Source of the DNA: a virus
Virus record (IMG/VR): IMGVR_UViG_3300021256_000064
Span: 64,001 to 128,000 of that record
Strand: one strand, 5' to 3'
Length of the DNA: 64,000 bases
Of the stretch, positions 15,290-64,000 are shown piece by piece (positions within the stretch are counted from its first letter, which is position 1; every line of letters begins with the position of its first letter). Position numbers and translations under genes: made by a program. Below the pieces are notes generated by a model, which saw only the letters and a program-made list of their open reading frames with translations, was not told the DNA's origin and did no database searches.

Positions 15290-15400
15290 ATCAAAATTGT
15301 CTAAATTTGCTAAAAAATGGATAAACTCTTAACGATTAAGTTATATATATATAATCGTTAAGAGTTTAATTAAAAATTGGCATATTTAGACAATTTTAAA
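15290..15400. repeat. nested inverted repeats around an AT-rich core: AAATTGTCTAAAT...ATTTAGACAATTT flanking AAACTCTTAACGATT-(AAGTTATATATATAT)-AATCGTTAAGAGTTT
   Basis: seen directly; ori-like or operator-like. Confidence 0.7.
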
Positions 15401-16000: not shown

Positions 16001-16059
16001 GTATGGAGTTTGTTGCGGTTTTGGGGATAATGTTATTTGTGTTATGGAGGAATATGTGA

Positions 16060-16271
16060 ATGGAAGGAAGCTTTGTGATAATGGCAGGAATTGTGGTGTG
16101 TCTGTTGATTGCGGTAATTCTTTTTTGGTTGGTGTTGATTGGATTTGGGATTTATTGGTTGATTGAGCGTGAGAAGGAGATTAAGGAGCGGAAAAGGGAA
16201 GCGTAGAGAAAGGAATAGTTAATTAATAATATTAGGGAATGGACGGAAGAGGATAAAATAGTGAATAAGTG
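16060..16271 (+). CDS. small transmembrane peptide, TAG read-through to TGA
   Basis: hydrophobic; purine-rich coding strand. Confidence 0.3.
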
Positions 16272-16607
16272 AGGGGAATATGGTATTTGGGATAGTATTT
16301 TTAGGAGTGATAGTTTCTTTGATAGGTATAATACGAATAAGTGATGTGATATGGATGATAATGACTGGGAAGGATAATAAATAAGGGAGCAATAATAGTT
16401 AATATATTAATGTTGCTATTGTTATTAAATAATTAAAGTATTAGAATTGTTAAGACTGTTGAAATTGATAGAGTTGTGAGAATAGTAAAAATAGTGAAAA
16501 TAGTGAGTGTGTAGTGCGCGAAACCAGTCCATGTTTTACCACCTATATTAGGTAAAGCGACCGTAAACATAAAAAAAGCTTAGAATTACTTCTAAGCTCT
16601 TGCCATA

Positions 16608-17018
16608 TTAAATCAGTTTATCAATAAAATCTTTAATTATTGCATCATCCGCACTAACACTAGTTGACTTTTCTCTTGTAAAAGTTGCTTTAGGAATCTT
16701 TTCAGAAAAATGCTTAAGCTTTTCAATTTCTTTCAAATCGTGCTCAATGTCTTTAAGCTCTTCTTCTGTTTCTGCAAGGACCTGCTCAAGGGCGGCGCGA
16801 GTACTCTCATCCAAGAAATTCTTATGACCAGTAAGTGCGATACCATAGTTCTCAAAAGCGCTAACAAGACTCTTACGAGATTCCTCAATTTCTCTTTTCT
16901 TTGCGGCTTCCTCTTCCTCAATCATCTTTGTAGCGCATTTAATTTCATATTCAACTTTTGTTCGAATAAAATCTGCAGTCTGACCAGACTTTAGCGCTTC
17001 ATAAACATTAATATTCAT
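16608..17018 (-). CDS. acidic coiled-coil protein (136 aa)
   Basis: ORF track. Confidence 0.5.
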   Translation of the reverse strand: MNINVYEALKSGQTADFIRTKVEYEIKCATKMIEEEEAAKKREIEESRKSLVSAFENYGIALTGHKNFLDESTRAALEQVLAETEEELKDIEHDLKEIEKLKHFSEKIPKATFTREKSTSVSADDAIIKDFIDKLI

Positions 17019-17119
17019 ATATTTTTCTCCTTTACTATTGTAATTATATTATACTAAAAATTTTTTAAAAAATCAAGCGGATTTAAAAAAGTGTTTTTTT
17101 AAAATTATAACAAAATTTT

Positions 17120-17265
17120 TCTAAAAAATCAAGGCATATGGATGGGGATCAATTCTGGGAAAATGGCGGCGGCCAACTCAAATGGCAAGGTTCTAGAAAA
17201 AAATCGCATATGGGACGCGTGTGGGGGAAGCGGGCCTGGGCGGTAGCCCGCGGCCCGACAATTAT
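17120..17265 (-). ncRNA. minus-strand promoter (TTGACA-N18-TATAAT) driving a GC-rich structured small RNA with terminator; no ORF
   Basis: RC TTGACAAACTATATTATTATATGGTATAAT then GGGCCGCGGGCTACCGCCCAGGCCCGC ... GCGTCCCATATGCG + T-run. Confidence 0.45.
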
Positions 17266-17337
17266 ACCATATAATAATATAGTTTGTCAATACTAATTTA
17301 AAAAAATAAAAAAAGATAAAGCATTTCCGCCTTATCT

Positions 17338-20100: not shown

Positions 20101-20246
20101 GAACTTTTTTTATTTTTTTCTTGACCGCCAAGGCTTTTTCCCTTACCTTGTATAGTAATTATATCAAAAAATTTTTAAAAAGTCAACAATGGAATAATGC
20201 ACTAATTTTGGGATTTTTGCGGATGAAATTTTGTTCAAATTGTCTA

Positions 20247-20378
20247 TTGACAAAAAGTGCTGAGGTGTGGTATAATGGAATTTCAGGCCTAGCCGGAGGC
20301 GTACGGCCCGCCGACTTTAGCGCACTGAAGTGCAAAAGTGTCAAGAGAAAAAATAAAATCCGCATAAGCGGATTTTAT
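20247..20378 (+). ncRNA. plus-strand unit 1: consensus promoter, GC-rich hairpin RNA, shared terminator
   Basis: TTGACA 20247-52, TGgTATAAT 20271-76, GC segment GGCCTAGCCGGAGGCGTACGGCCCGCCG, terminator AAAATCCGCATAAGCGGATTTT. Confidence 0.5.
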
Positions 20379-20385
20379 AAACTGG

Positions 20386-20563
20386 TTTACATAAAGATAA
20401 AATACACGATACAGATAAACGCCAGACGGAAGCAAGAAGTTTGTACAGCCTTACTAAAGAACGGCTCCCACTCGTCATTGTACCACTTAATGTGGCAATC
20501 CGCGATGTGACCAATGAACATAACAATTACAAAAATAATAAACATTGTCATTCTAGTTTCCAT
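20386..20563 (-). CDS. small membrane protein (about 58 aa)
   Basis: GGAGG RBS; hydrophobic. Confidence 0.4.
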
Positions 20564-20566
20564 TTT

Positions 20567-20794
20567 TTAATCCTCCATTACTTCAAAAATATCAAAATTG
20601 GCTACTTTCTCAAATTCTACTTCAACAGAAACTAAATCCAAAATTTCTTCAACTAAATTAGCTTCTCCTTTAGTAAGATTCAAAAATCTAGGTTCTGAAC
20701 AAGGCAAATACAATACATACAATTCTTTTTTCATTTTTTTAATCCTTTCTTCTTTTGATGATATTATTATATCAAAAGGGGACTGTTTTGTCAA
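20567..20794 (-). CDS. acidic small protein (75 aa)
   Basis: ORF track. Confidence 0.45.
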   Translation of the reverse strand: MTKQSPFDIIISSKEERIKKMKKELYVLYLPCSEPRFLNLTKGEANLVEEILDLVSVEVEFEKVANFDIFEVMED

Positions 20795-20812
20795 TCCCCT
20801 TTTTTAATTTTT

Positions 20813-21520
20813 TTACGCCACGCACATTTTAAAATCAGTCTGAGGGATACGCCAAGGCATAGCCAGAATAATTTTATCCATGTGCTTGTGACAAGCGAAA
20901 CATTTAGCAAAAATTTTAGTTTCAATCAGTGCATCCTCAAGGGCGGTGTGCGCTTCCTCAAAAGAAAAATCCCTATTGATGTAGCGGTGGGCAATTTCAG
21001 CGGATGTTTTCACATTCCCGGCATCACTAACCCATGATTCACGGATGGCAAGCTTAAAGAATGTTTTCTGCTTAAGAATTGTCTGACAGCTCATACCCCA
21101 TGAACACCAGATGACAGTCTTTTCATTGAAAAAAGTCTGCTTTTCGTCAAATTTGCTCAGATAGTTAAGGGTTGAATTTAAAGCCCTTGTATCAAAACCA
21201 GCGTTGTAGGCTACTACAGCCTTTACGTTGTATTCTCTCATAAGAGAAAAGATTTCTTTGCGGATTTCCCAAAAAGATTTTACAATCCACTTGCCTGTTT
21301 TAATACCCTCTTTATATGCGGGAATTTTTTCAGCATAGTAGGCGGTTCTCATCTTCTTCCATTCGCCATAAAAGATTTCTCTTACAACGTAGGAACGTGA
21401 TTCATATATATTGCCTTTCTTGTCATGAATGGTGAAACCAATGTCATATACGAGAGGATTACCAAGGTTACCGCAAGTTTCAGTGTCAAGTGTAAGGTAG
21501 TAGTTTTTACGTCTGTCCAT
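20813..21520 (-). CDS. DnaQ-like DEDDh 3'-5' exonuclease
   Basis: LDTETCG (Exo I), NAGFD (Exo II), HTALEDA (Exo III). Confidence 0.75.
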   Translation of the reverse strand: MDRRKNYYLTLDTETCGNLGNPLVYDIGFTIHDKKGNIYESRSYVVREIFYGEWKKMRTAYYAEKIPAYKEGIKTGKWIVKSFWEIRKEIFSLMREYNVKAVVAYNAGFDTRALNSTLNYLSKFDEKQTFFNEKTVIWCSWGMSCQTILKQKTFFKLAIRESWVSDAGNVKTSAEIAHRYINRDFSFEEAHTALEDALIETKIFAKCFACHKHMDKIILAMPWRIPQTDFKMCVA

Positions 21521-21732
21521 TGTTGTTTTCCTTTCCTTTATCTTATGTACTTATTATACATGATTACTTTTAGTTTGTCAAGAGTTTTTTTTTATTTTTT
21601 TTGATTGTTTTTGTGCTTTCCTCTTGACAATTATTATTATACATGAGGGGCGGTAGAAAGTCAATTAAAAGTTATAAAAAAGTTGCACAAATTACAGGAA
21701 AAAAATTTGTGCAACTTTTTTTCAAAAAATGC

Positions 21733-21832
21733 TTGACAAAAATACGCGGGGTGTGGTATAATGGATTTTGCGCGCCAACCCGGGCGTTGGCGCGCTGACA
21801 AAAAAAGACGCCCACTCAGTGGACGCCTTTTG
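21733..21832 (+). ncRNA. plus-strand unit 2: operator IR GTTGCACAAAT...ATTTGTGCAAC, promoter, 10-bp GC hairpin GCGCGCCAAC-CCGGGC-GTTGGCGCGC, terminator
   Basis: TTGACA 21733-38, TATAAT 21757-62; terminator GACGCCCACTCAGTGGACGCCTTTT. Confidence 0.55.
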
Positions 21833-21849
21833 TGTGAGTATTAGGAGCA

Positions 21850-22206
21850 TCACTCCGCCTTGAGAGCGAAGTGAGCAACTTTCTTGACGGTCGTACGCTC
21901 GACCTTGCCATCCTTAACCAGTGCGGACAGAAGATGTGTAATTCTCTGGTTGGTGAGGTCAGCGATAGATTCGCACACCTCACAGAGTTCCCTAATTGTG
22001 ACAGGCTTGTCAACAGTTGCGAGTGCGGAGAGAATATCAGCCTTGAAAGCCTCGTTCTCTACCTGTGTCTTAGTCGGCTTGCGGGTAGCACCGCTCTTAC
22101 GATTAAGAAGGTCGATTTCCTTGTCAATAAAAGCTACCATTTCAGCGTTATCAGCAACAACCTTACGAATTTCTGCGAACATTTCTTTCTTTGTCATACG
22201 AAGCAC
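21850..22206 (-). CDS. 117-aa winged-helix-like paralog B
   Basis: ORF track; paralog of 19536 and 24247. Confidence 0.6.
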   Translation of the reverse strand: MLRMTKKEMFAEIRKVVADNAEMVAFIDKEIDLLNRKSGATRKPTKTQVENEAFKADILSALATVDKPVTIRELCEVCESIADLTNQRITHLLSALVKDGKVERTTVKKVAHFALKAE

Positions 22207-22660
22207 CTCTTTCTTTTGTGTTTTTGTTTTTCTTATGTATTTATTATATTATATTTTTTTTATTTTGTCAATAGTTTTTTTAAGATTTTGAAAAGTTAAA
22301 GTTTCGCTTCCCAGAGCGAGTTGGACTTCAGCCCTGTATCCCACTCCACTTTGTACGATTTAGTCGACTTTACGTACTCGCCTTTATGGCTCATTTTGTG
22401 GGGCTTGCCCTTTCCTCATCTTGTATAATTATTATATCATATATTTAATTGTTTGTCAAGAAGAATTTTCAAAACTTTTTTTTGTTGGGGGAGTGGAGAA
22501 TGGAGCGTGCGCACGTAACTCTTTCTAACCTACTCTCAAGAACTATGTTTCTGTCATCTCCTGACATTGTGTATTATATCAAATACCCATAAGAATTACA
22601 ATAGTCAAAATACACAAAATTATGGGAAAATGTTTGTGCATTTTGCTGAGAAAGTTTTAC

Positions 22661-22755
22661 TTGACAAAAAATGCGGCGGTATGATATACTGGAATTTCGG
22701 CGCGAACCGGAGGCTCGCGCCCCGCCCAAAAGCAGGATTTAATAACCCTGCTCTT
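22661..22755 (+). ncRNA. plus-strand unit 3 (promoter TTGACA...TATACT, hairpin GGCGCGA-ACCGGAGGC-TCGCGCC)
   Basis: seen directly; terminator hairpin overlaps stop of 22739..23002. Confidence 0.45.
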
Positions 22756-23002
22756 CTGCTTCAAGATATTCCTCTTTTGAAATTTCTTCAACGTAAGCTT
22801 GAACATGCATTTCATATATTTCAATTTCATCCCAATTATCCATATCTTCGACAAACCGCTCATCAGGATAAGCAAAAGAGTATTCATCACAACAAATCTC
22901 GTCTGCTTCAGCCCAGGCTTCACTTTCAGATTCTGCTTGAATGTAAAAATGTTCATCACAACCACAATAGCCATTTGTGCAAGTTATTTTGTAATATTTC
23001 AT
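22739..23002 (-). CDS. highly acidic Cys-containing small protein (87 aa), DNA-mimic-like composition
   Basis: ORF track. Confidence 0.45.
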   Translation of the reverse strand: MKYYKITCTNGYCGCDEHFYIQAESESEAWAEADEICCDEYSFAYPDERFVEDMDNWDEIEIYEMHVQAYVEEISKEEYLEAEEQGY

Positions 23003-23143
23003 TTTAATACCTCACTTCCAACTAATGTAAAGTTTATAAAAACAAAACTCATGGTGATAATCACAATTTTCATTGTAATTATAACCCCAATAGGGGTCGT
23101 TCCAACGGTTCCAACCAATTTTAATTTTCATTTTTGTCTCCTT

Positions 23144-23371
23144 TCAATCTTCTTCTACAAGTTCCCCAAACAGCTCACATACTTCACGCCATTCACCATC
23201 ATTACTTGCAATAAATTCAAAGATTTCATCATCAGGTTCATCGGGGACGCCATCTCTAATCCAAATATCATAAACAAAGTCATCCCCCATATCAATGATG
23301 TAGTTATGCATACCTTTAAGAAGTTCAATTCTTCTTTCAATCTCACTCTGTTTCGTACTCTTAATTGTCAT
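23144..23371 (-). CDS. acidic small protein (75 aa)
   Basis: ORF track. Confidence 0.45.
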   Translation of the reverse strand: MTIKSTKQSEIERRIELLKGMHNYIIDMGDDFVYDIWIRDGVPDEPDDEIFEFIASNDGEWREVCELFGELVEED

Positions 23372-23608
23372 TTTTTTTATTTCCTTTCTTCTTTTGATGT
23401 TATTAGTATATCATAAGGAATTAGAGTTGTCAACCCCTTATTTTTTCATTTAGGCGGCTGTCGGGATGCGCTGCATCCTTTTTATCCGACATTTAATCAT
23501 CTTCGTCCGGTGACGCTCCGCAGATTTGCGGGTCTTCCGACTTGCATCCAGTGGAACCGCTTATGTTATTAGTATATCATAAGGGGTTGGAGTTGTCAAT
23601 CCCTTATT

Positions 23609-23800
23609 TTATCTTTCTCTAAAGAAATAATCAGTGAGTTCACTTTCATCTTTTTCGCTATAAGGACACATATAAGTTTCACGAGCTTCAGGTGGAAAAT
23701 ATTGAGGGTCATTGTGGTCTGCCCTAAGATAACAATATTTTTCAGGTGTCATTTCTACAACTTTTTCTACTCGCATTATATAAGAGATTTTAACTTTCAT
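23609..23800 (-). CDS. hypothetical protein (63 aa)
   Basis: ORF track. Confidence 0.4.
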   Translation of the reverse strand: MKVKISYIMRVEKVVEMTPEKYCYLRADHNDPQYFPPEARETYMCPYSEKDESELTDYFFRER

Positions 23801-24018
23801 TTGGTGTGTTCCTTTCTTTATCTTATGTATAAATTATAATAAATTTTAGGAAAAATGTCAAGTTGTAATTTTGCACAAAATACAAATCAAAAATTTGTAT
23901 AGTATCACATATTGACAAAACGCATCCCGCGGCGGTCCGTTGCGGGATGCCAAAAGGGGACTGCCTTCTACGACAGCCCCCACACCAAAAGAAAGGAAAA
24001 CAAATATTAGATTCTGAG

Positions 24019-24092
24019 TGAGGGTGAGGGGACTTGAACCCCCGACACCTAGATTAAAAGTCTAGTGCTCTAGCCAACTGAGCTACACCCTC
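24019..24092 (-). tRNA. tRNA-Lys(UUU) embedded in early region
   Basis: acceptor GAGGGTG/CACCCTC, D-arm GCTC-AGTTGGCTAGA-GCAC, anticodon stem CTAGA/TCTAG, loop CTTTTAA, T-loop TTCAAGT. Confidence 0.7.
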
Positions 24093-24246
24093 AAAATGGG
24101 CGGGCTTATATTGCAAGGCGCTCCGCCAGCCTTAGGACTATTCTACTTAGTTCGTTCTTTTAGGCAACTCGGCTTGAATTATCCCATATATAGAAAGCCT
24201 TTTCCTTTAATGCGGTTTTTAAGGATGACCGCAAACCCTTATGGAG

Positions 24247-24603
24247 TTAAGCGTAGGAGAAGTAAGCAACCTTCTTCACCTGTGTTCTGACTACTTTGCC
24301 ATCCTTAATGAGGGCTGTCAGAAGGTGTGTGATTCTCTGGTTCGTCAGCTCTGCAATAGAGGGGCAAACCGCACACAGTTCCTTGATTGTTACAGGCTTG
24401 TCAACCTCAATAAGAGAAGCAATAATGTCAGCCTTGAAGCCATCATTCTCAACCTGTGTCTTTGTGGGCTTGCGAGAAGCGGATTTCTTCTTATCCAGAA
24501 GCTTAATTTCGTTCTGGATGAAAGCTACCATGTCCTCATTCTCAGCTACTGCGGAAACCTTAAGCATTTCATTGTACATTTCTCTCTTCGTCATACTAGA
24601 CAC
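24247..24603 (-). CDS. 117-aa winged-helix-like paralog C
   Basis: ORF track. Confidence 0.6.
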   Translation of the reverse strand: MSSMTKREMYNEMLKVSAVAENEDMVAFIQNEIKLLDKKKSASRKPTKTQVENDGFKADIIASLIEVDKPVTIKELCAVCPSIAELTNQRITHLLTALIKDGKVVRTQVKKVAYFSYA

Positions 24604-24639
24604 CTCTTTCTTTTTTTATGTTTTGTTTTTTCTTTATCT

Positions 24640-25200
24640 TATGTATTTATTATAACTTATTTTTTTTATTTTGTCAAGAGTTTTTTTTATTTTTTTTATT
24701 TTGTTTTCGTGGGTTTGGCGCCTTATACCACGTGGCTGATAGCATTTTTGTTAGCCCCTTACATCCACCCTAACATGGGGCTTAAATCCTAACTCCCATA
24801 CACTTAATGTCCTTTTCTTTGCTTAACTTCTGTATTTATTATATCATATCTTTTTTAATTTGTCAATCACTTTTTTTATTTTTTTTCGGCGGGTCTCTCA
24901 TAAGATTGGCTCCTCTCCTGACTTTACTTACTTCCAACTTGAAAGTATGTCATCAACTTTTTTCGTATTTTTTAAAGTTTTTTCGGCGGGTCTCTCATAA
25001 GAATCAATCCTTTCTTTATCTTATGTATTTATTATACCATAAGATTTTTTATTTGTCAATAGTTTTTTTAAGATTTTTTGAAGTGACTTTCTTTTGTTCA
25101 GATAACCGATAGGCGCGAGGCTCTACCAATCACCCTACTTAATGTTGTTGTCCTTCCTTTATCTTGATATAATTATATCAAAAGTTTTTTAAAAAGTCAA
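24640..25200 (-). promoter_or_regulatory. four consecutive promoter modules without ORFs, separated by GC-richer filler; repeated motif CGGCGGGTCTCTCATAAGA (x2 here, x1 at 30331)
   Basis: TATTATA...TTGTCAA modules at about 24650-24700, 24835-24880, 25025-25070, 25160-25200. Confidence 0.45.
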
Positions 25201-29732: not shown

Positions 29733-29815
29733 TTGACAAAACCGCGAGGGTATGGTATAATGGTTGAACGGGCAAAGCCCGTGCGCCCACGGCGCGCCGA
29801 GCAAGAGCCGGAGCT
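29733..29815 (+). ncRNA. plus-strand unit 7 (hairpins ACGGGC-AAA-GCCCGT and GCGCC-CAC-GGCGC)
   Basis: TTGACA 29733-38, TGgTATAAT 29756-61. Confidence 0.45.
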
Positions 29816-30009
29816 TAGGAGAAGAATCTATTCCAAGCTTCCCACTCCTCAGTCCAGAGGTCCTCGATGTCTGTCCAATCGAGGTTCTCATCTCCGCTCA
29901 GCATAGCCGAACGAGCAAAGGCTGTAGCTTCCATAGCCTTGCGGTACTGCTCTACCTTGCGGTTTGTGAGGGTTGCTGTGATGCCGTCTGCGATAATGAT
30001 TGTTGTCAT
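29815..30009 (-). CDS. acidic small protein (64 aa)
   Basis: ORF track. Confidence 0.45.
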   Translation of the reverse strand: MTTIIIADGITATLTNRKVEQYRKAMEATAFARSAMLSGDENLDWTDIEDLWTEEWEAWNRFFS

Positions 30010-30094
30010 TTTTTTATCTCCTCTCTCTTGATGATTTTATTATATCAGATGGGATTGTTTTTGTCAACTACTTTTTTTTATTTTTTTTAGCGGA

Positions 30095-30180
30095 GCGAGT
30101 GGGAGTTGAACCCAAGAGAACTACTTGCTAGCATTTTCGTTCCCAGACGTCACCGTCTACCTACTTCCGTTCGGCTTACC
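30095..30180 (-). ncRNA. promoter-driven tRNA-like RNA (T-loop GGGTTCAACTCCC) occupying the slot where a module normally carries a CDS
   Basis: promoter 30185-30235 has ATCATCGGAAGG in place of RBS; transcript lacks ORF. Confidence 0.35.
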
Positions 30181-30418
30181 CTTCCGATGATTTTATTATA
30201 TCAAAGACTTTTTAGTTTGTCAACTACTTTTTTTATTTTTTGGTGAGGGATGGGAACTTGTCCGCTCACCGTGCCTGTATTCATCGCGCCCTAATGTCCC
30301 CAGGCTCTGGCGCATTTCTTTGGTTTGTTGGTTTTTACGGCGGGTCTCTCATTTCTGTGTTCCTCTCTTTTGATGATTTTATTATATCAGGTGGGGTTGA
30401 TTTTGTCAACCCCTTTTT

Positions 30419-30565
30419 TCAATTTTTTTCTTCTATTGTCATGTACTCTTCATAACCGAGGTTATCCCAAGCAGTATCTACATATTCGCAAGCCTCTTCA
30501 TAAGAATCGAATACTTCATCTACACTCCAGTTTCCACAGCAATCCATGAACCATACTTCGTACAT
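30419..30565 (-). CDS. acidic Cys-containing small protein (about 48 aa)
   Basis: internal ATG of ORF 30419..30622. Confidence 0.35.
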   Translation of the reverse strand: MYEVWFMDCCGNWSVDEVFDSYEEACEYVDTAWDNLGYEEYMTIEEKN

Positions 30566-30734
30566 TTTTGTTCTCCTCTCTCTTGATGATTCTATTATAT
30601 CAGATAGGTTGAAGTTTGTCAACCTTTTATTTTTATTTTTTAGAAGTTTTTGATATGAGTGGGAGATTTTCGACTTAGTTTAAAACTTACTCGCCTCGTC
30701 TGGGTGAACTTGCTTTAAAACACCCTTCGAAGTA

Positions 30735-30790
30735 AAGGAAGGAATCGAACCTTGTGTTGCTGTCAGCCTTTCTGACTGCCTTTACCTTAT
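30735..30790 (-). ncRNA. mini tRNA-like RNA at +1 of a promoter module: acceptor-like, D-arm-like and T-arm (AAGG-TTCGATT-CCTT) but no anticodon arm
   Basis: RC GGTAAAGGCAGTCAGAAAGGCTGACAGCAACACAAGGTTCGATTCCTTCCTTTACT. Confidence 0.3.
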
Positions 30791-31494
30791 GTTTTTATTA
30801 TACCAGAGGGGTTGAGGTTTGTCAACCCCTCTTTTTCATTTTTTTAATTTTCTTTGAGAAGCTCTTCAGCGATTTCCTCGGCTTCCGCCTCGGTGATTTC
30901 GTTGTATGCTACCATTCTGACCAGTTCTTCGAACATCATGTACTTCATTTTGCGTTCCTCGCTTTCTTTATCTTATGTACTTATTATATCAGATGTTTTG
31001 TAGTTTGTCAACTACTTTTTTTATTTTTTTGAAGCTTTCTACATTTCAGATGAACAACCGGCGCTTGGCTCGTCCGCCCACCCTATTCTGTTTTGTTGCT
31101 TCCTTTCTTTTGATGATTTAATTATATCATGGGGCTTGGCTTTTGTCAAGCCCCTTTTTTAATTTTTTTAAAAGATTTTTACGACTTTTCTGTCATCGTT
31201 ATCGTTATCTGTTGTGATAACCGCTGTTGTAGCATCTACATCTACAATACCATCCCAACCGCCATCCATAGCTGTCTGAACCGGAATGTTAAGTGCGTTA
31301 TTTGCTACTGCCCAGTTATAAAGATCCATGATTGTCATTTTTTTTACTTCCTTTCGTTTGTGTTTTTGTTTTCCTTTGATGATATAAGTATACCATCCTA
31401 GGTTTCTGTTGTCAATAGTTTTTTAAAAATCATATCAAAAATATTGCACAAAAATAGGAATTTATTTTTGTACATTTTGACGAATAAATTAGTC

Positions 31495-31606
31495 TTGACA
31501 AACTGCGTTGTAGTGTGGTATAATTTTCACGGCCTCCAGCCGTTCGTTTGTGGTTGCTAATCTTATTAGTTAATAAAAAGATAAGAGCGTTTCCGCTCTT
31601 ATCTTA
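31495..31606 (+). ncRNA. plus-strand unit 8 (hairpin ACGGC-CTCCA-GCCGT; terminator AGATAAGAGCG-TTTC-CGCTCTTATCT)
   Basis: TTGACA 31495-500, TGgTATAAT 31519-24. Confidence 0.5.
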
Positions 31607-31904
31607 CCTCGTTATATTTATTTCTTGTGTGTTCTTTTGCCAGTGCTAAAAGGTCTGTCGGGATTGTTTCATTTTCGTTGTAGTATCTTCTAATCTGTCC
31701 TGGTCTAGCGATTAATCTAGTTACCATTTTCTTTGTTCTTTCATTGTAGATTGTAATGATTGCTGTTGAGCTAATCACGTGGATTTCAGCACCGTTGCGA
31801 TGTCCTCTGTCTACTCTAACTTCCTTTACTGGTGTTCCTTCACCGATCTGCTGAATAAGTTCTTCTCTTGCTTTTCTATCTTTTGTGTAATGCTTGCTTG
31901 TCAT
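31599..31904 (-). CDS. hypothetical protein (101 aa)
   Basis: ORF track. Confidence 0.5.
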   Translation of the reverse strand: MTSKHYTKDRKAREELIQQIGEGTPVKEVRVDRGHRNGAEIHVISSTAIITIYNERTKKMVTRLIARPGQIRRYYNENETIPTDLLALAKEHTRNKYNEVR

Positions 31905-32044
31905 GTCTTTGTTCTCCTTTGCTTTTGTTTTCTTTTGATGATACTATTATAACGCTTACTTTATTAGTTGTCAATAGGTTTTCAACAAAAATATTGCACA
32001 ATTTTAGGTGATTTATTTTGTTACTTTTGACGAATAACTTAGTC

Positions 32045-32140
32045 TTGACAAACTGCATCGTTGTGTGGTATGCTGTTTCGGTGTCCGAACGACTGTTCAC
32101 GTTAGCAAATAAGTAAAAGCCTAACTTTCGTTAGGCTTTT
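32045..32140 (+). ncRNA. plus-strand unit 9 (promoter near-identical to unit 8, -10 TATGCT; terminator AAAAGCCTAAC-TTTCG-TTAGGCTTTT)
   Basis: seen directly. Confidence 0.45.
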
Positions 32141-32145
32141 ATTCT

Positions 32146-32328
32146 TTATACTCTATCGAGCAGTTCGCTTGTGGCGTCCAGCCATTCACGAGAAGCTTTC
32201 ATGTAGTTATCGTTTGCTAACATCCATGTTTCTGCATCAGCTGTTTTTGCTTCGATAAGCTGATTAAATGCGTAATCCATGTTTGCCTTAAGTTCCTTGC
32301 ATCTCATTTCCATAGCCTTTACTGTCAT
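32146..32328 (-). CDS. hypothetical protein (60 aa)
   Basis: ORF track. Confidence 0.45.
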   Translation of the reverse strand: MTVKAMEMRCKELKANMDYAFNQLIEAKTADAETWMLANDNYMKASREWLDATSELLDRV

Positions 32329-32439
32329 TGTTTTGTTCTCCTTTTCTTTTGTTTGAGGTTTCTTTCCTCATCTCTTGAATACATTATACTGCTAAGTAGT
32401 TCACTTGTCAATACTTTTTTATAAAAAATATTATCTTTT

Positions 32440-32940
32440 TATTGGTTAGTAGTGCCTACCTACTACCATGCTGTACTACATACATGTATTAACATATTAA
32501 TGTGTTAATGTATTAATGTTGTATTGTGTTAATGTGTTAATGTTGTATCACTTCACATCGTTACACTTCAACGTGGTGAAGTGATGCAGCTCAGCACTTC
32601 AACGTGGTGAAGCGTCACAGTGATACCACTTTAACGCGCTGAAGTGGCAATGCTTTAACGCGGTGAAGTGATAGCGCTTTAACGTACTAAAGTTTCATAC
32701 TTTAACGCGGTGAAGTGGCACCGTGGTGACGCGCGAAAAACAGCCATAAGTAAGACTTTAGCGAGGTGAAGTGTTAACGCGCTGACGCTTTAACGCGGTG
32801 AAGTGGTGACGCTGTGAAGCGCTGAAATCGCCCCTAAAATGGGACTTTAGCGCGGTGAAGTGTGACGCTTTAACGCGCTAAAATTTAACGCTTTAGCGTG
32901 GTGAAGTGCAAAAACGGCTCTCAACCAACCCGTTTCGAGC
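32440..32940. repeat. iteron array: about 11 degenerate copies of ACTTYAACGCGGTGAAGTG (partly palindromic ACTTCA-N6-TGAAGT) at irregular 20-45 bp spacing, preceded by GTTAATGT mini-repeats
   Basis: seen directly; noncoding 950-bp gap between gene blocks. Confidence 0.75.
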
Positions 32941-33060
32941 CGCGCGCAATACGAAGATTATTATAATTACTAATCAAGAATTTTCCATAAATTAAGAATT
33001 GATTTTTTGAAAATATTATTTTTATTATTTTATTTTTTATTATTTTATTTTTATGGCAGG
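32941..33060. repeat. AT-rich tract with TATTTTATT repeats (DNA-unwinding-element-like) adjoining the iterons
   Basis: seen directly. Confidence 0.6.
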
Positions 33061-33297
33061 TATGAGTGTTTTATGTATTTTTTGGGGCGTATCAATCTAC
33101 AGACGTACTCGTCAGATTTGTTCAGCTACAGACACTTCCTTAATAATTATCTGGGGGGGTATATTTCGGGAGAAAAATTTTTTAAAAATGTGAAAAGGGT
33201 ATTGTCTCCACACAACTCTCTCCAAATTAATTTTCAAAATTAAAAAACGATTTAAATCCCACTTCCCTCTCCAAACCAAAAATGGAGGGATGATTTA

Positions 33298-33654
33298 TCA
33301 TCCCTCCATTTCCTTTGCCTCATAAATATTTGGATACCAACTAAAAAATGGTTTCCTACTTCCGCCAACTTTTATCCTATAAGTTTTTCCAACTTCAATT
33401 TTCCCATATAAATCAGAAGAATTAAATCTTCCATAAAGCCAACTATCAGTAATCTCATAAGTGGTATCAGTAGAATAAACTAAATATTTATCATCTTTAA
33501 CCATTTTATCAGTAACTTCAATAGTTTCATATCTTATATTTGTAGCTTTATCAATAGGTCTCCAAAAACTAACTACAATAAGAAACCCTATAATAAGGAT
33601 ATAAAAAATAAATGCAATAACTTTTACATTAGAACCTTCATCATAATAACCCAT
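33298..33654 (-). CDS. membrane protein (118 aa, N-terminal TM helix)
   Basis: ORF track. Confidence 0.5.
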   Translation of the reverse strand: MGYYDEGSNVKVIAFIFYILIIGFLIVVSFWRPIDKATNIRYETIEVTDKMVKDDKYLVYSTDTTYEITDSWLYGRFNSSDLYGKIEVGKTYRIKVGGSRKPFFSWYPNIYEAKEMEG

Positions 33655-35917: not shown

Positions 35918-37048
35918 ATGAAATAGGCAGGTATAAAAAATGCTCCTCTATCTAAAAATATTGATAGTAAAAGACCTTATGCTAGATTGGATCATACTAT
36001 TACTGATATTAATTAGCGTAATAAAATAGTTCATCAAATTGTAAATACTACACCTCCTTAGCGGTTAACGCCTTATTATTTGGAAGAGTTAACTAGATAT
36101 TTAGTATAGACTCAACAGAGCAAGAAAGAAAAGACAATTTTAACAGATAATAGAATGGTTACCGTTAATAAAAGAGAAACTTCTTATGAAGGGCTTGTTT
36201 TAAAATTAGAGAATGGTGAAGATGGTATTTATAATTTTATGACTGGCGGCGATAAGAATATTTTATTAGTTCCAAAAATATAGATCACTGAAGATGATAT
36301 TGCTACAATACCTGGATTAAAAGAATTAAGAGAATAGATAAAAAAAATAGAGAGTCAACAAAAAGAAGCAACTGGGAAAAAGAAATTTTTATTAACTAAA
36401 CAATTAATATAGATGCGGCAAGATCAATACATATTAAAAAGTTCCTATAAACCGCCAATTACCTCAATGAAATTAACAAAAAATGTAAATCATATTGTTT
36501 TAAATGAAAGAGTAAAAATTGATGAAAAAGGTGACCCAGTTAGTAATTGTTTAATATCATTATTTAATCCTCATCATGTTAGTTGTCTATTGTGTAATTA
36601 TTCTAAAATAAAAGAATAGGCTTGGGGTAATTTTGATGGAGATTGGTGGTTTTTAATGGAGGATTTTGATAATCTTATTGATAAAGCTTTACAAAAAGAT
36701 TATCCTATTTTATATGATGTTGTTAAATTAAAAATTGACGGCTTACAAAATAAAGACATTTCTATATAGCTGAAACAAAAATATGGCGTTACCTATTCTG
36801 TTGAATACCTTTCCGTTGTTTGGCGTAAAAAAATCCCAAAAATAATTTCAGATAGGGCAAAAGAAGATTGGATCGTATGGTATTATACCATAAAAGAAAA
36901 GGGTAAATGGAAAAGATGTTCTAGATGTCATGAAGTAAAATTAGCTCATCCCTATTTTTTCACAAAAAATAAAACCGCAAAAGATGGTTTATATAGTATG
37001 TGTAAATGTTGTAGAAATAAAAAAACAACAAAGGTCAAAAAAGCTTAA
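35918..37048 (+). CDS. late protein with C-terminal Cys/His cluster (possible HNH/Zn-finger); 7 in-frame TAG
   Basis: single frame (mod 3 = 2) open from ATG 35918 to TAA 37046 except TAGs; ORF-track fragment 36413..36619 in same frame. Confidence 0.55.
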
Positions 37049-37091
37049 TTTAATATACTATTTTTTATATAAAAATAGAAAGGAGATTTTT

Positions 37092-38414
37092 ATGGCAAAG
37101 AAATTAGGACAAGAACCAGATAAGAATGGGAAATGTGCATGTTAGAGATGCGGTAAACGGATCGGTCAAATTAATTTTTACACATATAAAGATGGTAGTA
37201 AATGTGAGATTTGTAAAGAATGTTTAACTGCACATATTGATAATTTTGATTTCCATACTTTTGAATGGATTTTAGAAAAATTTGATGTTCCCTATATTCC
37301 TACTGAATGGAATGTATTAAGAGATAGAGCATTTGCTAAAGATCCTTATAAAATGAATGGAATGTCAGTTGTAGGTAAGTATCTTGCGAAAATGAAACTT
37401 AAACAATGGCGGGAATATGGATATGCAGATACTAAAAAAATTCAAAAAGAAATGGATGAAAAAAAGGCTAAAAAAGAATAGGCAGAAAAAGAAGAAAAGT
37501 AGCGATATGAAGCTGAATTGAAAGTTAAATTAAGTTAGGGAAAAATTTCACTTGCTGAATATCAAACTTTAGTTAGCACAGAAACCCAAAATAAAGAATT
37601 ACCTCAATGGGGAAATAATATAACTGGCTAGCATTTGGGTCAAATGTATTAGGCATATGGTCAACCGCAATCTTATGCTGATGCATTAAGCCAAGCTAAA
37701 AATCCATTTCAATAGCAGAACTTTTTATCTTAGAATGAACTGCCAGATGTTGGTTCAGATTTAAGTAAAGATGATAAAATGTATCTTGCGGTTAAGTGGG
37801 GTAGATTGTATAAACCTAGTCAATGGGTTGCTCTTGAACAGTTATATAATGAGTTTATGAGTTCTTTTGATATACAAGGTGCCGCCAGAATTGATACTTT
37901 AAAGAAAATTTGTAAAACTTCTTTAAAAATGGATTAGGCTATTGATTGCGGCGACATAGATTCTTATCAAAAATTATCTCGTGTATATGATTCATTAATG
38001 AAATCCGCAAAATTTACAGAAGCGCAAAATAAAGATAAAGAAGGTGCGGGAATTGATTCTGCTTCTGCTATTGTTGATTTTGTATAGAGTCATAGTGGAG
38101 AAATTCCACGTTATCATTGTGATGAACCTCAGGATATTATTGATCAAATTATTTTAGATTTAAAAGCTTATAATAAAAATTTAATTTATGAAGATAAATC
38201 TTTAGCTCAAGAAATTGAAAAATATCTTCAAGATAAGCGTATCTCTGATGAAATGAAGAAAGATAAAAAAGAAGCAAGAGCAAAAGGATTAGATACCGTT
38301 GAACTTGAAGATGATGATTTTGTAGATTTTAAAAATGTTTTAAATCATATGAAGACACATGATAATGACCTAGATGATACTTTAATTGAAGAATAGTATC
38401 AAAATAGGAGGATA
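37092..38414 (+). CDS. packaging-region protein with N-terminal zinc ribbon (possible small terminase by position); many in-frame TAG
   Basis: GGAG RBS, ATG 37092, TAA 38412; immediately upstream of TerL. Confidence 0.45.
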
Positions 38415-38421
38415 AAACAAG

Positions 38422-40159
38422 TATGAATTTAAAAGAATTACTTTAGTTATCCTCGGGGAGAGATTTTAGAAAACAAGGGCTATCTGAATAGCGATTACTA
38501 CAAGATATAGATGGATTAAGAGATTTAATTGCTTATTTTAGGGAATACCCTGATATATTTGTAGATTTTATAAAAGGAAAAGATAGTACATTTAATTTCT
38601 TATTTTATCAAAGAATATTTTTAAGAATTGTTATGCGGCATAGGTATGTGTACGCGACTTTTCCACGTGCTTATTCGAAGTCTTTTTTGTCAATGATGGC
38701 GTTGATGATAAGATGTATTTTATATCCTAACTCACATTTGTTTGTAACCACGGGCGGTAAGTAGCAAGCAGCCTCGATTACAATCGCAAAGATCTAGTAG
38801 ATATGTAGACTTATTCCTGGATTAAATAATGAAATTAATTGGGATCGTGGAGTTTCTACTAAATCAAAAGACAACGTAAAATATGTATTTAAAAATGGTT
38901 CAACTATTGATATTCTTGCGGCAAGACAATCTTCTAGAGGCCAGCGTCGAACAGGCGGATTAATGGAATAGTGCGTTCTTATTGATGGAGACATTTTAAA
39001 TGAAGTTATTATTCCTACTACCAACGTTGATAGGCGTCTCTCAGATGGCAGCCGCCACAAAGAAGAAAATGTAAATAAAAGTCAAATTTATATTACTACC
39101 GCCGGATGGAAAAATTCATTTGCTTATCATAAACTAATATAGATTTTAATTAATTCAATTATAGATCCTGATTAGTTTATGATTATGGGTGGAACTTATG
39201 AAACGCCTGTTGTTTCAGGACTATTAGATGAAGACTTTGTTTAGCAATTAAGATTACAAGGTACTTTTAATGATTAGTCGTTTAATAGATAGTATAGAAG
39301 TATATGGTCTGGAGATGTAGAAAATGCTTTCTTTTCTTCCGAAAAATTTGATAAATATAGAGTATTATTACAACCAGAATATGAGTACAGCGGGAGATCT
39401 TCTAAAAATGCATATTATGTATTTGGAGTGGACGTTGGGCGTGTAGGATGTACAACTGAAATTTGTGTTTTTAAAGTAACCCCACAAGTACAGGGGTCAG
39501 CTCATAAGACTCTTGTTAATATTTATACATATGATGCAGAACATTTTGAAACTCAATGTATTCATATTAAACATTTATATTATAAATATAAACCTCGTAG
39601 AATTGCGGTGGATGCGAATGGATTAGGTGTTGGATTAATTGATTATTTAATAAAACCGCAAGACACTGAAGATGGATAGTATTTACCTCCTTTTGGAGTT
39701 TTTAATACAGATGAATATCCTGAATATAAAAAATTTGTGACACCAGAGACTTAGAAAGATGTTTTATATTTAATTAAAGCTAATGCACCAATTAATACTT
39801 AGGCTTATAGTTATGCTCAAACTCAAATGTTTAGCGGGAAAATCAGATTTTTAATTGATGAAGGATTAGCAAAAACAAAATTAATGTCTACTAAGCAAGG
39901 TCAAAATATGAACATGGATGAAAGAAATGAATATTTACGACCTTTTATATTAACTTCTATTTTAAAATAGCAAATGTTAAATCTTGTTTAGGAAAATGAA
40001 GGTGTTAATATTATTTTAAAACAAAGTAATAGAAGTGTCAAAAAAGATAAATTTTCTGCTTTTATTTATGGTTTATATTATATTCGTTATGAAGAATAGT
40101 TAAATAAAAAGAAAAGAAAACGTAATATTTCTGACTTTTTATTTTTTACACAAGGTTAA
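38422..40159 (+). CDS. terL: terminase large subunit (Walker A ATFPRAYSKSF; RNaseH-like nuclease motifs FGVDVGRVG, IAVDANGLGVG); N-terminus shows a frame discontinuity
   Basis: body in frame 2 from 38432 to TAA 40157; strong RBS+ATG at 38422 is in frame 1 which hits TGA at 38485; in-frame TAGs throughout. Confidence 0.7.
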
Positions 40160-40578: not shown

Positions 40579-40640
40579 AGAAGGAGAGGTATCTAAAGTT
40601 GATAAATCGAATGGCATAGATAAAGAAAAAAGGCTTTAAT

Positions 40641-42182
40641 ATGATTGGAACTGAAGATTACCAAATTCCCAATTAGGCTACTGGATATACACCAGTTGAT
40701 TTTGCAAAAATTCGAGTTGGAGTAAAAAATGTATCTGATGTTATTTTAAAACTTGGAGATTTAAGAAGAGTCAATCCGCAACTAGCAGATAAAGGACAAG
40801 TATTAAGAGCTATCCATTATGGTGATCTTAATAAGATGAGAGATATTTCTAATTATTTTTATAAAATTAGTGGTATTTATCAAAGATTATGTCGTTATAT
40901 GGCATATATGTATAGATATGATTGGCTTGTTACCCCTTATTATGCTTAGTCTGTCAAGCCTACAAAGATACTTGATGGTTTTAATAAAGTTTTAACATAC
41001 TTAGATAAATTTGAGGCTAAAAGATTTTTTGGAGACGTTGCTTTAAAAGTTATTAAAAATGGTTGCTATTATGGATATTTAATTGCTAAAAATGGAACTG
41101 TGGTAGTTCAAGAACTACCTCCGAGATATTGTAGATCTAGATATGTAGTTTCTAATGGGCAGCCGCTTGTTTAGTTTAATATGAAATACTTTGATGATAT
41201 GTTTACAGATGCGTAGCAACGTCTTAGAATGTTAAAAGTATTTCCGCCAGAATTTGAAAAAGGATATAAGTTGTATAAACAAGGAAAATTAAAGCCTGAT
41301 TTTCCTGGAGATGATTCTGGATGGTACTTATTGACTGTTGGTTCTGTTATAAAATTTAATTTAAATGGGGAAGATTTCCCGCCTTTTATTGCAGTTATTC
41401 CAGCTATTATTGATTTAGATGCAGCGCAAGATCTCGATCGTAGAAAGATGCAACAACAATTATTAAAAATTATTATTCAGAAAATGCCTATTGATAAAAA
41501 TGGAGATTTAGTGTTTGATGTAGACGAAGCTCAACAACTTCATAATAATGCAGTGCAAATGTTATCAAAAGCTATTGGTATTGATGTTTTAACTACTTTT
41601 GCGGAAGTTGATGTTGCGGATATGGCAGATAATCATACTACAACAACAACAGATGATTTAGAAAAAGTAGAGCGTACTGTTTATAATGAAGCAGGTGTTT
41701 CACAGATGCAATTTAATACTGATGGTAATATTGCTCTTGATAGATCTATTTTAAATGATGAAGCTTCAATGTGGAATTTAATACAGCAATTTGAAACATT
41801 TTTAAATGCTTTATTAACACCTTTCAATACAAGTCCAAAAAAAGTAACTTACAGAGCGCAAATTCTTCCTACTACGATTTACAATTATAAAGATTTAGCT
41901 AAACAATATAAAGAGCATACTCAATTAGGTTATTCTAAAATGTTACCTCAGATTGCTCTTGGGCAATCACAAAGCGCAATTTTAGCAACAGCTTATTTTG
42001 AAAATGATATTCTTGATTTAGTTAATGTCTTTATTCCACCATTAATGTCGAGCACTATGAACGCAGAAGTTCTTAATCGCAATAAGACTACTGGCGAGAC
42101 AAAATAGGGTGCGGGTAGGCCTGAGAAAGAAGATAGTGAGAAATCAACTAAAACAATTCAGAATCGTGAAAGTATGAATTAA
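40641..42182 (+). CDS. portal protein (by position and size, about 513 aa)
   Basis: ATG 40641 in frame with ORF 41229..42107; continues through TAG to TAA 42180. Confidence 0.55.
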
Positions 42183-49580: not shown

Positions 49581-51335
49581 ATGAGTTTACAAGTTTGGTT
49601 GCCCCTAAATGGGGACTTACATAATCAAGGAATTTTAGGTAATTTAAATTTCACTAAAATTGGTGAAAGCGGAACTATTATAGATACAAATGAAGGCAAA
49701 ATTGGAAAAGCAAAAGAATTTTCTGCCGCAGGATTAAGAGCACCTCTATCTTATACTCTTGGATCATAGCTTTCTTTTTCTTGTTGGATATATTATAATA
49801 GTTTTCAAACTAATAATGAATGGATTCTTGAATTAGGAGATACTAGTTCTGGATACGCCAATGCTTTATTTGGAATTGCTTCAACTCCGACTAAACTTGT
49901 AGTTTGTGTTGGAGGAGCTTATGATTCTGCAACTGTTCATGATTTTGTTATAAACACATGGTATCATTTAGCTTTTACATATGATGGTACTACATGGAAA
50001 ATTTATAAAAATGGTTAGTTAATAAGAAATTTTGATAAAAATATAAGTTCTATTACTTCTAGTTCAAATATAACTATTGCTTCTAATGTTGCGTCTTCCG
50101 CAACAAAACTTAATGGGCGATTAAATGATATTAGAATATATAATAATTGTTTATCTTAGCAATAGATTAAAGAAATTTCTAAAGGATTAATTTTACATTA
50201 TCCATTAAATAGACAATGTTGGGGACAAGAAAATTTATTAAAAGCATCAAACGTTCCAGTTACTAATAGTAACTATTGTATTCAATCTTATTATTTTGGA
50301 GATAATCCGCCACAAGCAGACGAGTAGGTTACGATTCAAATTAAAGGACATCTTGCTGATACAAAATCATATTGGTATGTATATAATAGCGGTGGTACTG
50401 TTCAATGTTTAAAAATATAGAAAAATACTTATAATGAAAATACTGGTATATACACTATGGCAGGGGAATGGAAAACTCAAAAGAATACTACAACTGCTGC
50501 GAACACTTATATAAATGTATATGCATTTACAAGGTCTCAATCGGGTGAATCTACAATTGAATGGATAAAATTAGAACGAGGTAATAAAGCAACTCCATGG
50601 TGTCCTAATGCGGCGGATGATATATATACTACATTAGATTTAGGTAATAATATTTAGTATGATATATCTGGTTATCAAAATAATGGTACTAAATATAATA
50701 TCACTTATGATTCTGATACACCAAAATATGATGTATCTTCAGTATTTACAAGTGTAGATACTAGTTATATAAAAGTAAATGAAAATAATTGGATACCGCA
50801 ATATCAAGAGGCTATGACAATAAATCTTTTTGCGTATTCTACAAATTGGGCATAGACCACAAAATTATATTCTTGTATGCAGACCGGTGGTTTTGGAACT
50901 AATGTTAGTAAGATATCTGGGTATGTAAGAATTGCGGTTTATGTAGCTACAAATGAATAGAGAACAAATCATAGTTATAAATATAGTAATCAAGAATTAA
51001 AAATTTCAGACTTACCTGCGGGTTGGCATATGCTTACTTTTATTTATGATTCTACTGGTAATAAAGTTTATGTAGATGGACAATTACATTCTAGTTATGC
51101 TTTTACTTCATATGGTATAAAATATAATACTAATGCAAAATTATTTTTAGGATGTGAGGGAGATGCCGCTTCTCCTACCGGTCCTTATTTTAATGGAAAA
51201 ATAAGTGATTTTAGATTATATGCAACAGCGTTTTCTGCTGAGGATGTATTATCACTTTATAATGATAAAGTTGATTTTTCATCTAGTGATATTGTAGGAG
51301 AAGGATTAGTAGGCTATATGATATTAAAATAGTAA
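49581..51335 (+). CDS. tail / receptor-binding protein with two concanavalin-A-like (LamG) lectin domains; ends TAG-TAA
   Basis: ORFs 50457.. and 51030.. in same frame (mod 3 = 0) as ATG 49581; motifs TWYHLAFTYDGTTWKIYKNG and WHMLTFIYDSTGNKVYVDGQ. Confidence 0.6.
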
Positions 51336-63534: not shown

Positions 63535-63547
63535 TGAATAAAAATAA

Positions 63548-63584
63548 AAGGGTAGATGATTTAATCATCTACCCTCTTTTTTAT
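63548..63584. terminator. bidirectional rho-independent terminator between late operon and convergent dUTPase
   Basis: AAAAGGGTAGATGATT-TAA-TCATCTACCCTCTTTTTT. Confidence 0.7.
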
Positions 63585-63588
63585 TGTT

Positions 63589-64000
63589 TACCAGTTGAAC
63601 CAAAACCGCCATCTCCACGTTCTGTTTCAGATAAATTATCTGTTTCATAAAAATCCATTTCAATATAAGGAAGAAGAATCATTTGAGCAATTCGTTCTTG
63701 AGGTACGATAGTTTGAACTTCATCTGTATCATTATGAATAGCTACAATATACTATCCACGATAATCACTATCACATACACCTACACAATTTGCAGGGCGA
63801 AGACCTTGCTTTGCGGCGATGCCTGATCTGGCGAAGATTGCTGCAAAAGTTCTTTCAGGTAACTCAAAAGAAAGACCTGTTCCAATTTTCATTGTAGAAT
63901 GAGGTAAAATATAAACAGTATCATCGGTTGCTGCATACAAATCATATCCCGCTGCATATTCACTTCCTCTTGTGGGAAGTTTAGCAAGATTATTAAGTTT
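63589..64000 (-). CDS. dut: dUTPase (C-terminal part; N-terminus beyond window) with one in-frame TAG at the conserved residue after DSDYRG
   Basis: RSGIAAKQGLRPANCVGVCDSDYRG-TAG-YIVAIHN...RGDGGFGSTGKQ* (motifs 3 and 5). Confidence 0.75.

Follow-up and report, generated by a model that had tools for sequence, protein, structure and literature searches.

The phage from which the 64-kb window (the whole 64,000-nt stretch of DNA analysed here) derives very probably reads TAG as glutamate, with its own CUA-anticodon tRNA competing with release factor 1 (RF1), as judged from codon-level alignments and tRNA architecture. The window has a G+C content of 33% and belongs to a rumen siphophage of approximately 135-140 kb that is related to SPbeta-like phages of Bacillota. 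An in-frame TAG within a catalytic motif of its dUTPase gene was the starting point, and the same reading emerges from the TAG codons of its late genes. The coordinates of the relevant features are summarized in Table 1.

Table 1. Features of the window relevant to TAG decoding (dot, both strands).
Feature	Position	Strand	Remarks
Suppressor tRNA, anticodon CUA, in tRNA array	1180-1253	-	ARAGORN; Rfam tRNA, 62.8 bits; C1-G72, G2.U71, A73, U11-A24; 3-bp D-stem; 11-nt D-loop GAGUGGCUUAA; 5-nt variable loop; anticodon loop CUCUAAA
Phage tRNA-Glu(UUC)	1962-2037	-	3-bp D-stem; 11-nt D-loop AAGCGGUUUAA; variable loop AGAC; A73
Leftward block, mostly small genes	4050-36034	-	Essentially TAG-free
Sigma factor in leftward block	4050-4901	-	phrog_351, E 2.9e-90
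Conserved gene, exception in leftward block	5967-6761	-	5 in-frame TAGs
Late structural operon	36984-63534	+	126 in-frame TAGs; TerL, portal, virion and tail genes (PHROGs)
TerL	38423-40159	+	17 TAGs
Portal	40611-42182	+	6 TAGs
Bidirectional hairpin terminator between converging late operon and dUTPase	63546-63578	.	Stem and T-runs
dUTPase gene	63581-64000	-	5' end cut at window edge; 139 codons visible plus TAA
True stop of dUTPase (TAA)	63581-63583	-
In-frame TAG directly after DSDYRG (motif 3), probably Glu	63752-63754	-	Residue 83 of 139 visible
dUTPase peptide spanning the TAG		-	CDSDYRG[E/Q]YIVAIHNDTDEVQTIVPQER; Glu and Gln versions differ by 0.984 Da

A dUTPase gene with a translated TAG

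The minus-strand gene at the right-hand edge of the window is, on the strength of its sequence, a homotrimeric-type dUTPase, for which dUTP hydrolysis is predicted. It matched Pfam PF00692 (E 7.4e-28; 97.3 bits, cut-off 22) from profile position 3 to 129 (profile length 129); among PDB entries it matched E. coli Dut (E 2.8e-26), and a protein search returned 120 homologs at 75-94% identity. Read in frame 0 from position 64000, the minus strand gives ...PANCVGVCDSDYRG-TAG-YIVAIHNDTDEVQTIVPQERIAQMILLPYIEMDFYETDNLSETERGDGGFGSTGKQ-TAA, and from the visible N-terminal part onwards the protein reads KLNNLAKLPTRGSEYAAGYDL...CVGVCDSDYRG-TAG-YIVAIHNDTDEVQTIVPQERIAQMILLPYIEMDFYETDNLSETERGDGGFGSTGKQ-TAA; the dUTPases of relatives carry 6-12 additional N-terminal residues compared with this visible part. 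With the TAG read through, all five dUTPase motifs (AGYDL, ARSG, DSDYRG, RIAQ and RGDGGFGSTG) lie in frame, motifs 4 and 5 being downstream of the TAG. Nine independently assembled relatives and four further loci also have TAG at this codon. Between relatives that share the TAG, synonymous and nonsynonymous changes downstream of it numbered 10:2 and 10:5, a ratio similar to that upstream (23:9 and 25:4). The in-frame position of motifs 4 and 5 and the mostly synonymous change downstream indicate that the TAG is translated as a sense codon.

The earlier note on this DNA had described a minus-strand dUTPase at 63589-64000, which is correct to within a few bases, and had argued that the TAG after DSDYRG in motif 3 must be translated; the purifying selection on motifs 4 and 5 bears this out. 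It had also placed the gene in a different transcription unit from the late operon, and the two do converge across a terminator hairpin, whose stem comprises 15 pairs on the minus strand and 12 pairs on the plus strand, with a T-run in each orientation. The scan for such hairpin terminators found 2 sites, compared with 0.4 expected.

The residue at the dUTPase TAG column

In the DNA of 85 related loci, the motif-3 TAG column was occupied by GAA (61 loci), GAG (14), TAG (9) and CCG (1), with no CAA or CAG. The earlier note had proposed Gln, with Glu given only in brackets; the lack of any Gln codon in the 85 loci speaks against the former, and the 75 Glu codons favour the latter. At the protein level, Q appears in the eight nearest database homologs and one more (P0001-P0008, P0036), and E in 110 others. 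However, the DNA underlying the Q was TAG in all six of these homologs that were examined, and the loci concerned (L001-L007, L216-L219) were flagged as having DNA that does not translate to the database protein. The database Q is therefore a TAG translated with table 15 and not independent evidence, and reading the amino acid from the nearest homologs was rejected as circular. Table-15 Gln is applied by prodigal-gv, Pharokka-gv, the NCBI node "Caudoviricetes code 15 clade" as well as large protein collections; in one of these collections, table-15 gene calling has placed Q at every TAG of the clade's proteins.

Further TAGs in the dUTPases of relatives align with E46, E94, E102 (the E of GERIAQ) and D27. 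At the GERIAQ position, the Q of one locus (L218) was considered as a possible TAG/CAG neighbour and discarded, its codon being CAA, two steps from TAG. In alignments with PDB entries across the dUTPase superfamily, the motif-3 column holds E, Q (in E. coli), T or N, and given this variability a single codon could not settle the meaning of TAG. The alignment proposed in the earlier note yields a column that is nearly always Glu within the clade and variable across the superfamily.

TAG columns across the genes of the window

Each TAG in the window's proteins was replaced by X before alignment to DNA from 166 related loci that centre on dUTPase or terminase (about 200 related phage loci were used overall); the codons opposite each TAG were then tallied, with ordinary codons as controls. 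The query for the dUTPase-anchored retrieval had E at the TAG, a residue also present in one of its six search patterns; the X-containing protein search and the terminase-anchored set, in which every TAG was X, are free of this weakness, and the results agree. Among 106 TAG columns, the commonest sense residue was E in 61%, D in 9%, K in 6% and Q in 6%, the controls for the same set being 67% Q for true Q columns and 70% E for true E columns; the log-likelihood was -225.8 for E, -313.0 for D and -315.8 for Q. Restricting the comparison to HSPs of at least 85% identity raised E to 86% of the TAG columns, with Q at 3% (log-likelihood -29.6 for E, -168.7 for Q), while true Q stayed Q in 97% and true E stayed E in 94%. 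The column-weighted codons opposite TAG at this level were TAG 24.2, GAA 17.9, GAG 3.4, CAA 0.9 and CAG 0.1. Even against two cultured standard-code phages alone, E (-153.6) scored above Q (-170.0). Fifteen separate recoded loci of the clade, each used as query, all gave E; an all-against-all scan assigned 50 loci to the E type; and the pooled ratio of GAR to CAR opposite TAG was approximately 14:1 at 88-97% identity. Applied to the TAG columns of the window, the alignment test of code 15 (TAG as Gln) thus did not find Gln to be dominant, and Glu fits.

Individual positions follow the same pattern. Some TAGs occupy positions at which Glu is invariant in relatives (12/12, 77/78), and in the NrdD of a relative TAG43 aligns with E in both full-length PDB structures, TAG719 aligning with D, D and N. 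Approximately 6% of the TAG columns are dominated by Q, a proportion near the background of E/Q exchange, though not zero. The base at +4 after sense TAGs resembles that after GAA and GAG, and no special read-through context was found in the nucleotides that follow them. Early-versus-late codon usage was also considered as a sign that TAG had replaced GAG, and was set aside, as the fractions of GAG and CAG both drop in late genes.

As a positive control, the same pipeline was run on phAss-1 (OQ749652.1) against its close relatives in IMG/VR, the GenBank phage collection having yielded no close phAss-1 relatives. Here the columns were 43% Q and 4% E, with log-likelihoods of -204.5 for Q and -280.2 for E and opposite codons of CAA 15.2, CAG 5.4 and GAA 2.4. 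The method is therefore not biased toward Glu, and the two lineages differ. For the phAss-1 group (L196, L211, L199-L210), this codon-level test confirms the published assignment of TAG to Gln.

The suppressor tRNA

Thirteen CUA-anticodon tRNAs were recovered from the arrays of relatives. The cloverleaf of this suppressor family is supported by compensatory changes at 15 of 20 pairs, and the anticodon loop CUCUAAA and the U11-A24 pair are invariant in 7/7 variants. The suppressors have a 3-bp D-stem, a 10-11-nt D-loop (xAGYGGYUUAA), a 4-5-nt variable loop and mostly A73, with C-G, G-C or G-U as the 1:72 pair. The tRNA-Glu(UUC) of the clade is built in the same way, and one suppressor type has a D-loop and variable loop identical to it; the L168-type suppressor has the variable loop AGAC, as in tRNA-Glu, and G1-C72. 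By comparison, the clade's tRNA-Gln has a 9-nt D-loop, G73 and A-U or U-A at 1:72. In L168-L171 the genes for Glu(UUC), Glu(CUC) and Sup(CUA) stand in tandem; a single substitution, at position 36, turns CUC into CUA.

The published determinants of GluRS identity include U35, A37, U11-A24 and an augmented D-helix (PMC9976931). A U1-A72 pair is needed by bacterial GatCAB, which does not accept tRNA-Glu with its extra D-loop base (PMC2811023). The tRNA-Glu-like marks U11-A24, U35, A37 and an enlarged D-loop are all present in the window suppressor, and the Gln/GatCAB marks looked for in it (U1-A72, G73 and a short D-loop) are absent. Some GluRS determinants are nevertheless missing from it: it has C at position 34 and A at position 36, residue 47 is present, and its first pair is C1-G72 where tRNA-Glu has G-C; the GluRS rules used here are those of E. 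coli and may not apply to the host. An isotype assignment from whole-sequence identity was tried and rejected: all values lay at 0.6-0.7 (Arg 0.71, Ile 0.70, Gln 0.69, Glu 0.65), the best non-suppressor matches being Arg, Ile, Gln and Trp. Whole-sequence identity is thus non-discriminating, and for the isotype of the suppressor architecture alone is informative. The label "Pyl" given to this tRNA by ARAGORN follows from the anticodon alone; the atypical structure of tRNA-Pyl was not found, the molecule being an ordinary cloverleaf with a full match to the general tRNA model, and no pyl genes were found in the window.

Several other tRNAs in these arrays were recorded. A tRNA-Met(CAU) at 1101-1176 on the minus strand lies 3 nt from the suppressor and reaches just 38 bits with the Rfam tRNA model; most relatives' arrays retain the Sup-Met order, with variable spacing. 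The array of one Glu-type relative (L175, IMGVR_UViG_3300021399_000007) holds, at L175:12099-12173, a tRNA whose UUA anticodon would pair with TAA and whose D-arm, GUC AAAAGGUUAA GAC, is Glu-like. The distant relatives L182 and L183 (sigma factor 42% identical), whose loci hold few TAGs, have a CUA tRNA (L183:15284-15358) that starts UGGGG..., with a U1-U72 mismatch and G73, a Gln-like acceptor end.

Distribution of TAG and gene layout

With TAG as a sense codon, the longest ORF of the window grows from 507 to 1245 codons. Besides TerL and portal, other late genes hold 10-14 TAGs each, and the late block as a whole has 14.6 TAGs per 1000 codons. The early, 30-kb leftward block has only 6 in 4128 codons (1.45 per 1000); one gene accounts for five of these, and no gene in the block stops at TAG (TAA 24, TGA 4; one apparent TAG belongs to an internal fragment). 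The gene with five TAGs is Cys-rich, is kept in 12 relatives and has no PHROG match. One of its TAG columns is Glu in 9/9 sense codons and the remaining columns vary; its position 101, with CAA in 10/12, is the clearest Q-type column in the window. In the genes upstream of dUTPase in the close relative L001, DnaE has no TAG in 1321 codons, NrdD has 3 and Gmk 2, with 3 in dUTPase itself. Going by these counts, TAG use is graded, with none in early genes, few in genes of nucleotide metabolism and many in late genes. The recoding had been called genome-wide in the earlier note; sense TAGs do occur beyond the late operon, but six in the leftward block against 126 in late genes make that description an overstatement.

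No in-frame TAA or TGA was found in conserved regions of the clade. The possibility that TAA is also a sense codon, raised by the tRNA(UUA) of L175 and a few TAG/TAA pairings, was rejected, as in-frame TAA or TGA occurred only at a mis-set start, in variable C-termini and in terminase insertions. As far as reading frames can tell, TAA and TGA remain stops, TAA being the main one. Release-factor and synthetase genes were not seen in the 64-kb window, where no gene outside the late block exceeds 306 codons.

Some details of gene calling deserve mention. The first late gene (36984-38426, plus strand) is likely to begin near 37092 (MAKKLGQ...), given that relatives carry stop codons in the extension before that point. 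The gene at 49581-51335 (plus strand) ends ...ILK-TAG-TAA and has nearly the same end under either code. The stretches 13300-17300, 20200-25200 and 29800-33300 have low coding density, with short, poorly supported ORFs on either strand and under either code, including some plus-strand ORFs with TAGs and some clearly spurious low-complexity ones.

Relatives, sister lineages and host

The nearest cultured phages are Enterococcus phages H1, VRE9_4 and EF1, Geobacillus phage E3 and SPbeta-like phages of Bacillus and Lactococcus, with TerL 33-45% identical. Near-identical DNA in the GenBank phage collection was limited to two short unannotated human faecal contigs. No exact match to the suppressor was found across 185,579 genomes, and a terminase scan of genomes returned only rumen MAG contigs of inconsistent taxa. 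Contigs of the clade sit in MAG bins labelled "Endomicrobiaceae" (L213 and L214, JBGUZU010000044.1, 139,570 bp), Erysipelotrichaceae (L212) and Clostridium sp. (L215). With its TerL split across both contig ends, JBGUZU010000044.1 probably represents an entire, circularly permuted phage genome placed in the wrong bin. Another genome of the clade, taken as complete, is IMGVR_UViG_3300021400_001206 (139,781 bp). The host is probably a member of Bacillota, although the MAG bins disagree. In six loci (L113, L115, L138, L152, L160 and L165), the TerL match spans about 2.5 kb with an interruption of about 0.8 kb and in-frame stops at residues 76-77, which suggests an intron or an inserted homing-endonuclease gene of the kind annotated in Enterococcus phages EF1 and EF5; the TerL of the window is uninterrupted.

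One relative appears to depart from both Glu and Gln. The 146,105-bp contig IMGVR_UViG_3300028805_000058 (L157, range 106293-128029) has a TerL at 10001-11740 that is 73% identical to that of the window, and TGG is found opposite its in-frame TAGs, at positions where 60-80 relatives all have Trp (74 TGG at TTAG-W-KNSF, 78/78 at SG-W-YLL and 80/80 at K-W-GRLYK). W was found in 20 of 23 informative columns, with a log-likelihood of -18.7 for W and -78.7 for Y. This contig appears to read TAG as Trp, which would be a third meaning within one phage group. On balance we lean towards a scenario in which the amber codon was captured independently in sister lineages of SPbeta-like phages of about 130-145 kb from gut and rumen Bacillota, as Glu in the window clade (50 loci), as Gln in the phAss-1 clade (10 loci) and as Trp in at least one contig (L157), with the choice between Glu and Gln set by the GatCAB determinants of the suppressor (U1-A72, short D-loop).

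Proposed mechanism and alternative explanations

Once expressed, the CUA tRNA would compete with release factor 1 at TAG, so that genes containing TAG would be translated in full. Lacking such read-through, dUTPase would end at visible residue 83 and lose motifs 4 and 5; with it, DSDYRG would be followed by Glu, for which nearly all relatives have GAA or GAG at this codon. Glutamylation of the suppressor is likely carried out by the host GluRS, an enzyme that already tolerates variation at anticodon position 36 in bacteria without GlnRS; a non-discriminating GluRS takes both Glu and Gln anticodons (PMC9976931). The Glu on the suppressor would then escape amidation to Gln, since a tRNA without U1-A72 and with a long D-loop of the tRNA-Glu type is expected to be rejected by GatCAB. 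In phAss-1, the same glutamylation would be followed by amidation to Gln. The graded use of TAG may delay full-length late proteins until the suppressor accumulates, as has been proposed for other recoded phages.

Four other accounts were weighed. That the phage follows the standard phage code 15, with TAG as glutamine as in crAss-like phages, Lak phages and phAss-1, is decidedly unlikely. In its favour, no TAG reassignment other than Gln has been described for phages, the motif-3 column is Q in E. coli dUTPase, the database proteins of the nearest relatives show Q and a few TAG columns are Q-dominated; yet those database Qs are TAG in 6/6 homologs, the 85 loci hold no CAA or CAG, and E is favoured by 90 nats overall and by 139 nats at 85% identity or more. 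Moreover, E is almost never found opposite genuine Q columns at that level of identity, the same method gives Q for phAss-1, and the suppressor has neither U1-A72 nor G73. Ambiguous decoding, in which Glu is partly amidated to Gln, or TAG is part sense and part stop throughout infection, also seems unlikely. Suppression always competes with RF1, the roughly 6% of Q-aligned columns could reflect tolerance of either residue, and a release-factor or synthetase gene was not seen in the window. However, the 17 TAGs of TerL and the 10-14 of other late genes imply that decoding must be efficient, and the presence of TAG at Glu-invariant positions (12/12, 77/78) that selection treats TAG as Glu.

The idea that TAG specifies another residue, either Asp or a non-standard one such as pyrrolysine, draws on the ARAGORN name and on Asp being the second commonest partner in some identity bands. 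We regard it as very improbable: the name comes from the anticodon alone, the tRNA folds as a normal cloverleaf whose full-length match to the general tRNA model scores 62.8 bits, Asp trails Glu by about 87-100 nats, the window shows no pyl genes, and TAG columns align with Glu rather than Lys. The chance that the TAG is a true stop, dUTPase being truncated, a pseudogene or the product of an assembly error, is practically negligible. Although the standard-code ORF does end there, and GenBank annotations of related phages are fragmented likewise, motifs 4 and 5 remain in frame with mostly synonymous changes downstream, the same TAG recurs in at least 13 independent assemblies, the terminator follows the TAA rather than the TAG, and 126 further in-frame TAGs lie in essential late genes.

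Implications

If TAG is Glu in this clade, code 15 is not a single phage code, and database proteins of the Glu clade carry a wrong Gln at every TAG. Approximately 1.5% of late-protein residues in databases would then be wrong; the error would swap a charged for a neutral residue, often at conserved acidic sites such as the Glu of GERIAQ in dUTPase, and homolog alignments would return a circular Gln signal. Sister lineages using Glu, Gln and Trp would form a natural system for studying how a freed codon gains meaning, and the proposal that GatCAB antideterminants decide between Glu and Gln is directly testable. Natural amber suppressors that insert Glu could also serve genetic-code engineers. 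A search of open-access papers and bioRxiv found no paper claiming TAG-to-Glu in a phage. To our knowledge, this would be the first such assignment outside eukaryotic nuclei.

Comparison with known systems

TAG is assigned to Glu in two eukaryotic nuclear codes, NCBI tables 30 (Peritrich) and 31 (Blastocrithidia). In these whole-organism codes TAA is reassigned together with TAG, whereas in the phage TAG alone is changed, TAA being the main stop, and the code is viral, the host presumably using the standard code. The dUTPase of the window shares a full-profile match and five motifs with E. coli Dut (PDB 1DUD), which differs in having Gln in the column where the clade has Glu. TGA-recoded phages (code 4, e.g., Agate) have a "code-change" module consisting of a suppressor tRNA, TrpRS and RF1. 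As in these Agate-type phages, a phage suppressor tRNA would give a stop codon of the window a new meaning, chiefly in late genes, but the codon and amino acid differ, and a synthetase or release factor gene was not seen in the 64-kb window.

The closest likeness is to the code 15 phages, namely crAss-like phages, Lak phages, Garnet/Amethyst/Topaz and phAss-1 (Babkin et al. 2023, PMC10607447; Borges et al., preprint 10.1101/2021.08.26.457843; PMC8346664). They share with the window in-frame TAGs in conserved genes, a phage CUA tRNA, and a concentration of TAG in late structural genes, with early genes compatible with both codes. Surveys of recoded phages found that TAG "in most cases aligned best with glutamine", and in Lak phages Q was the partner of TAG in 75-85% of cases and E only occasionally; in the window the partner is Glu. 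Of these phages, phAss-1 is of the same broad genome type as the phage studied here, a 136-kb gut phage with a TerL 44% identical to that of the window and a TAG likewise present in its dUTPase. Its suppressor (record positions 105747-105820) has U1-A72, G73, a 4-bp D-stem and a 9-nt loop, whereas the suppressor of the window has C1-G72, A73 and a D-arm of the Glu type.
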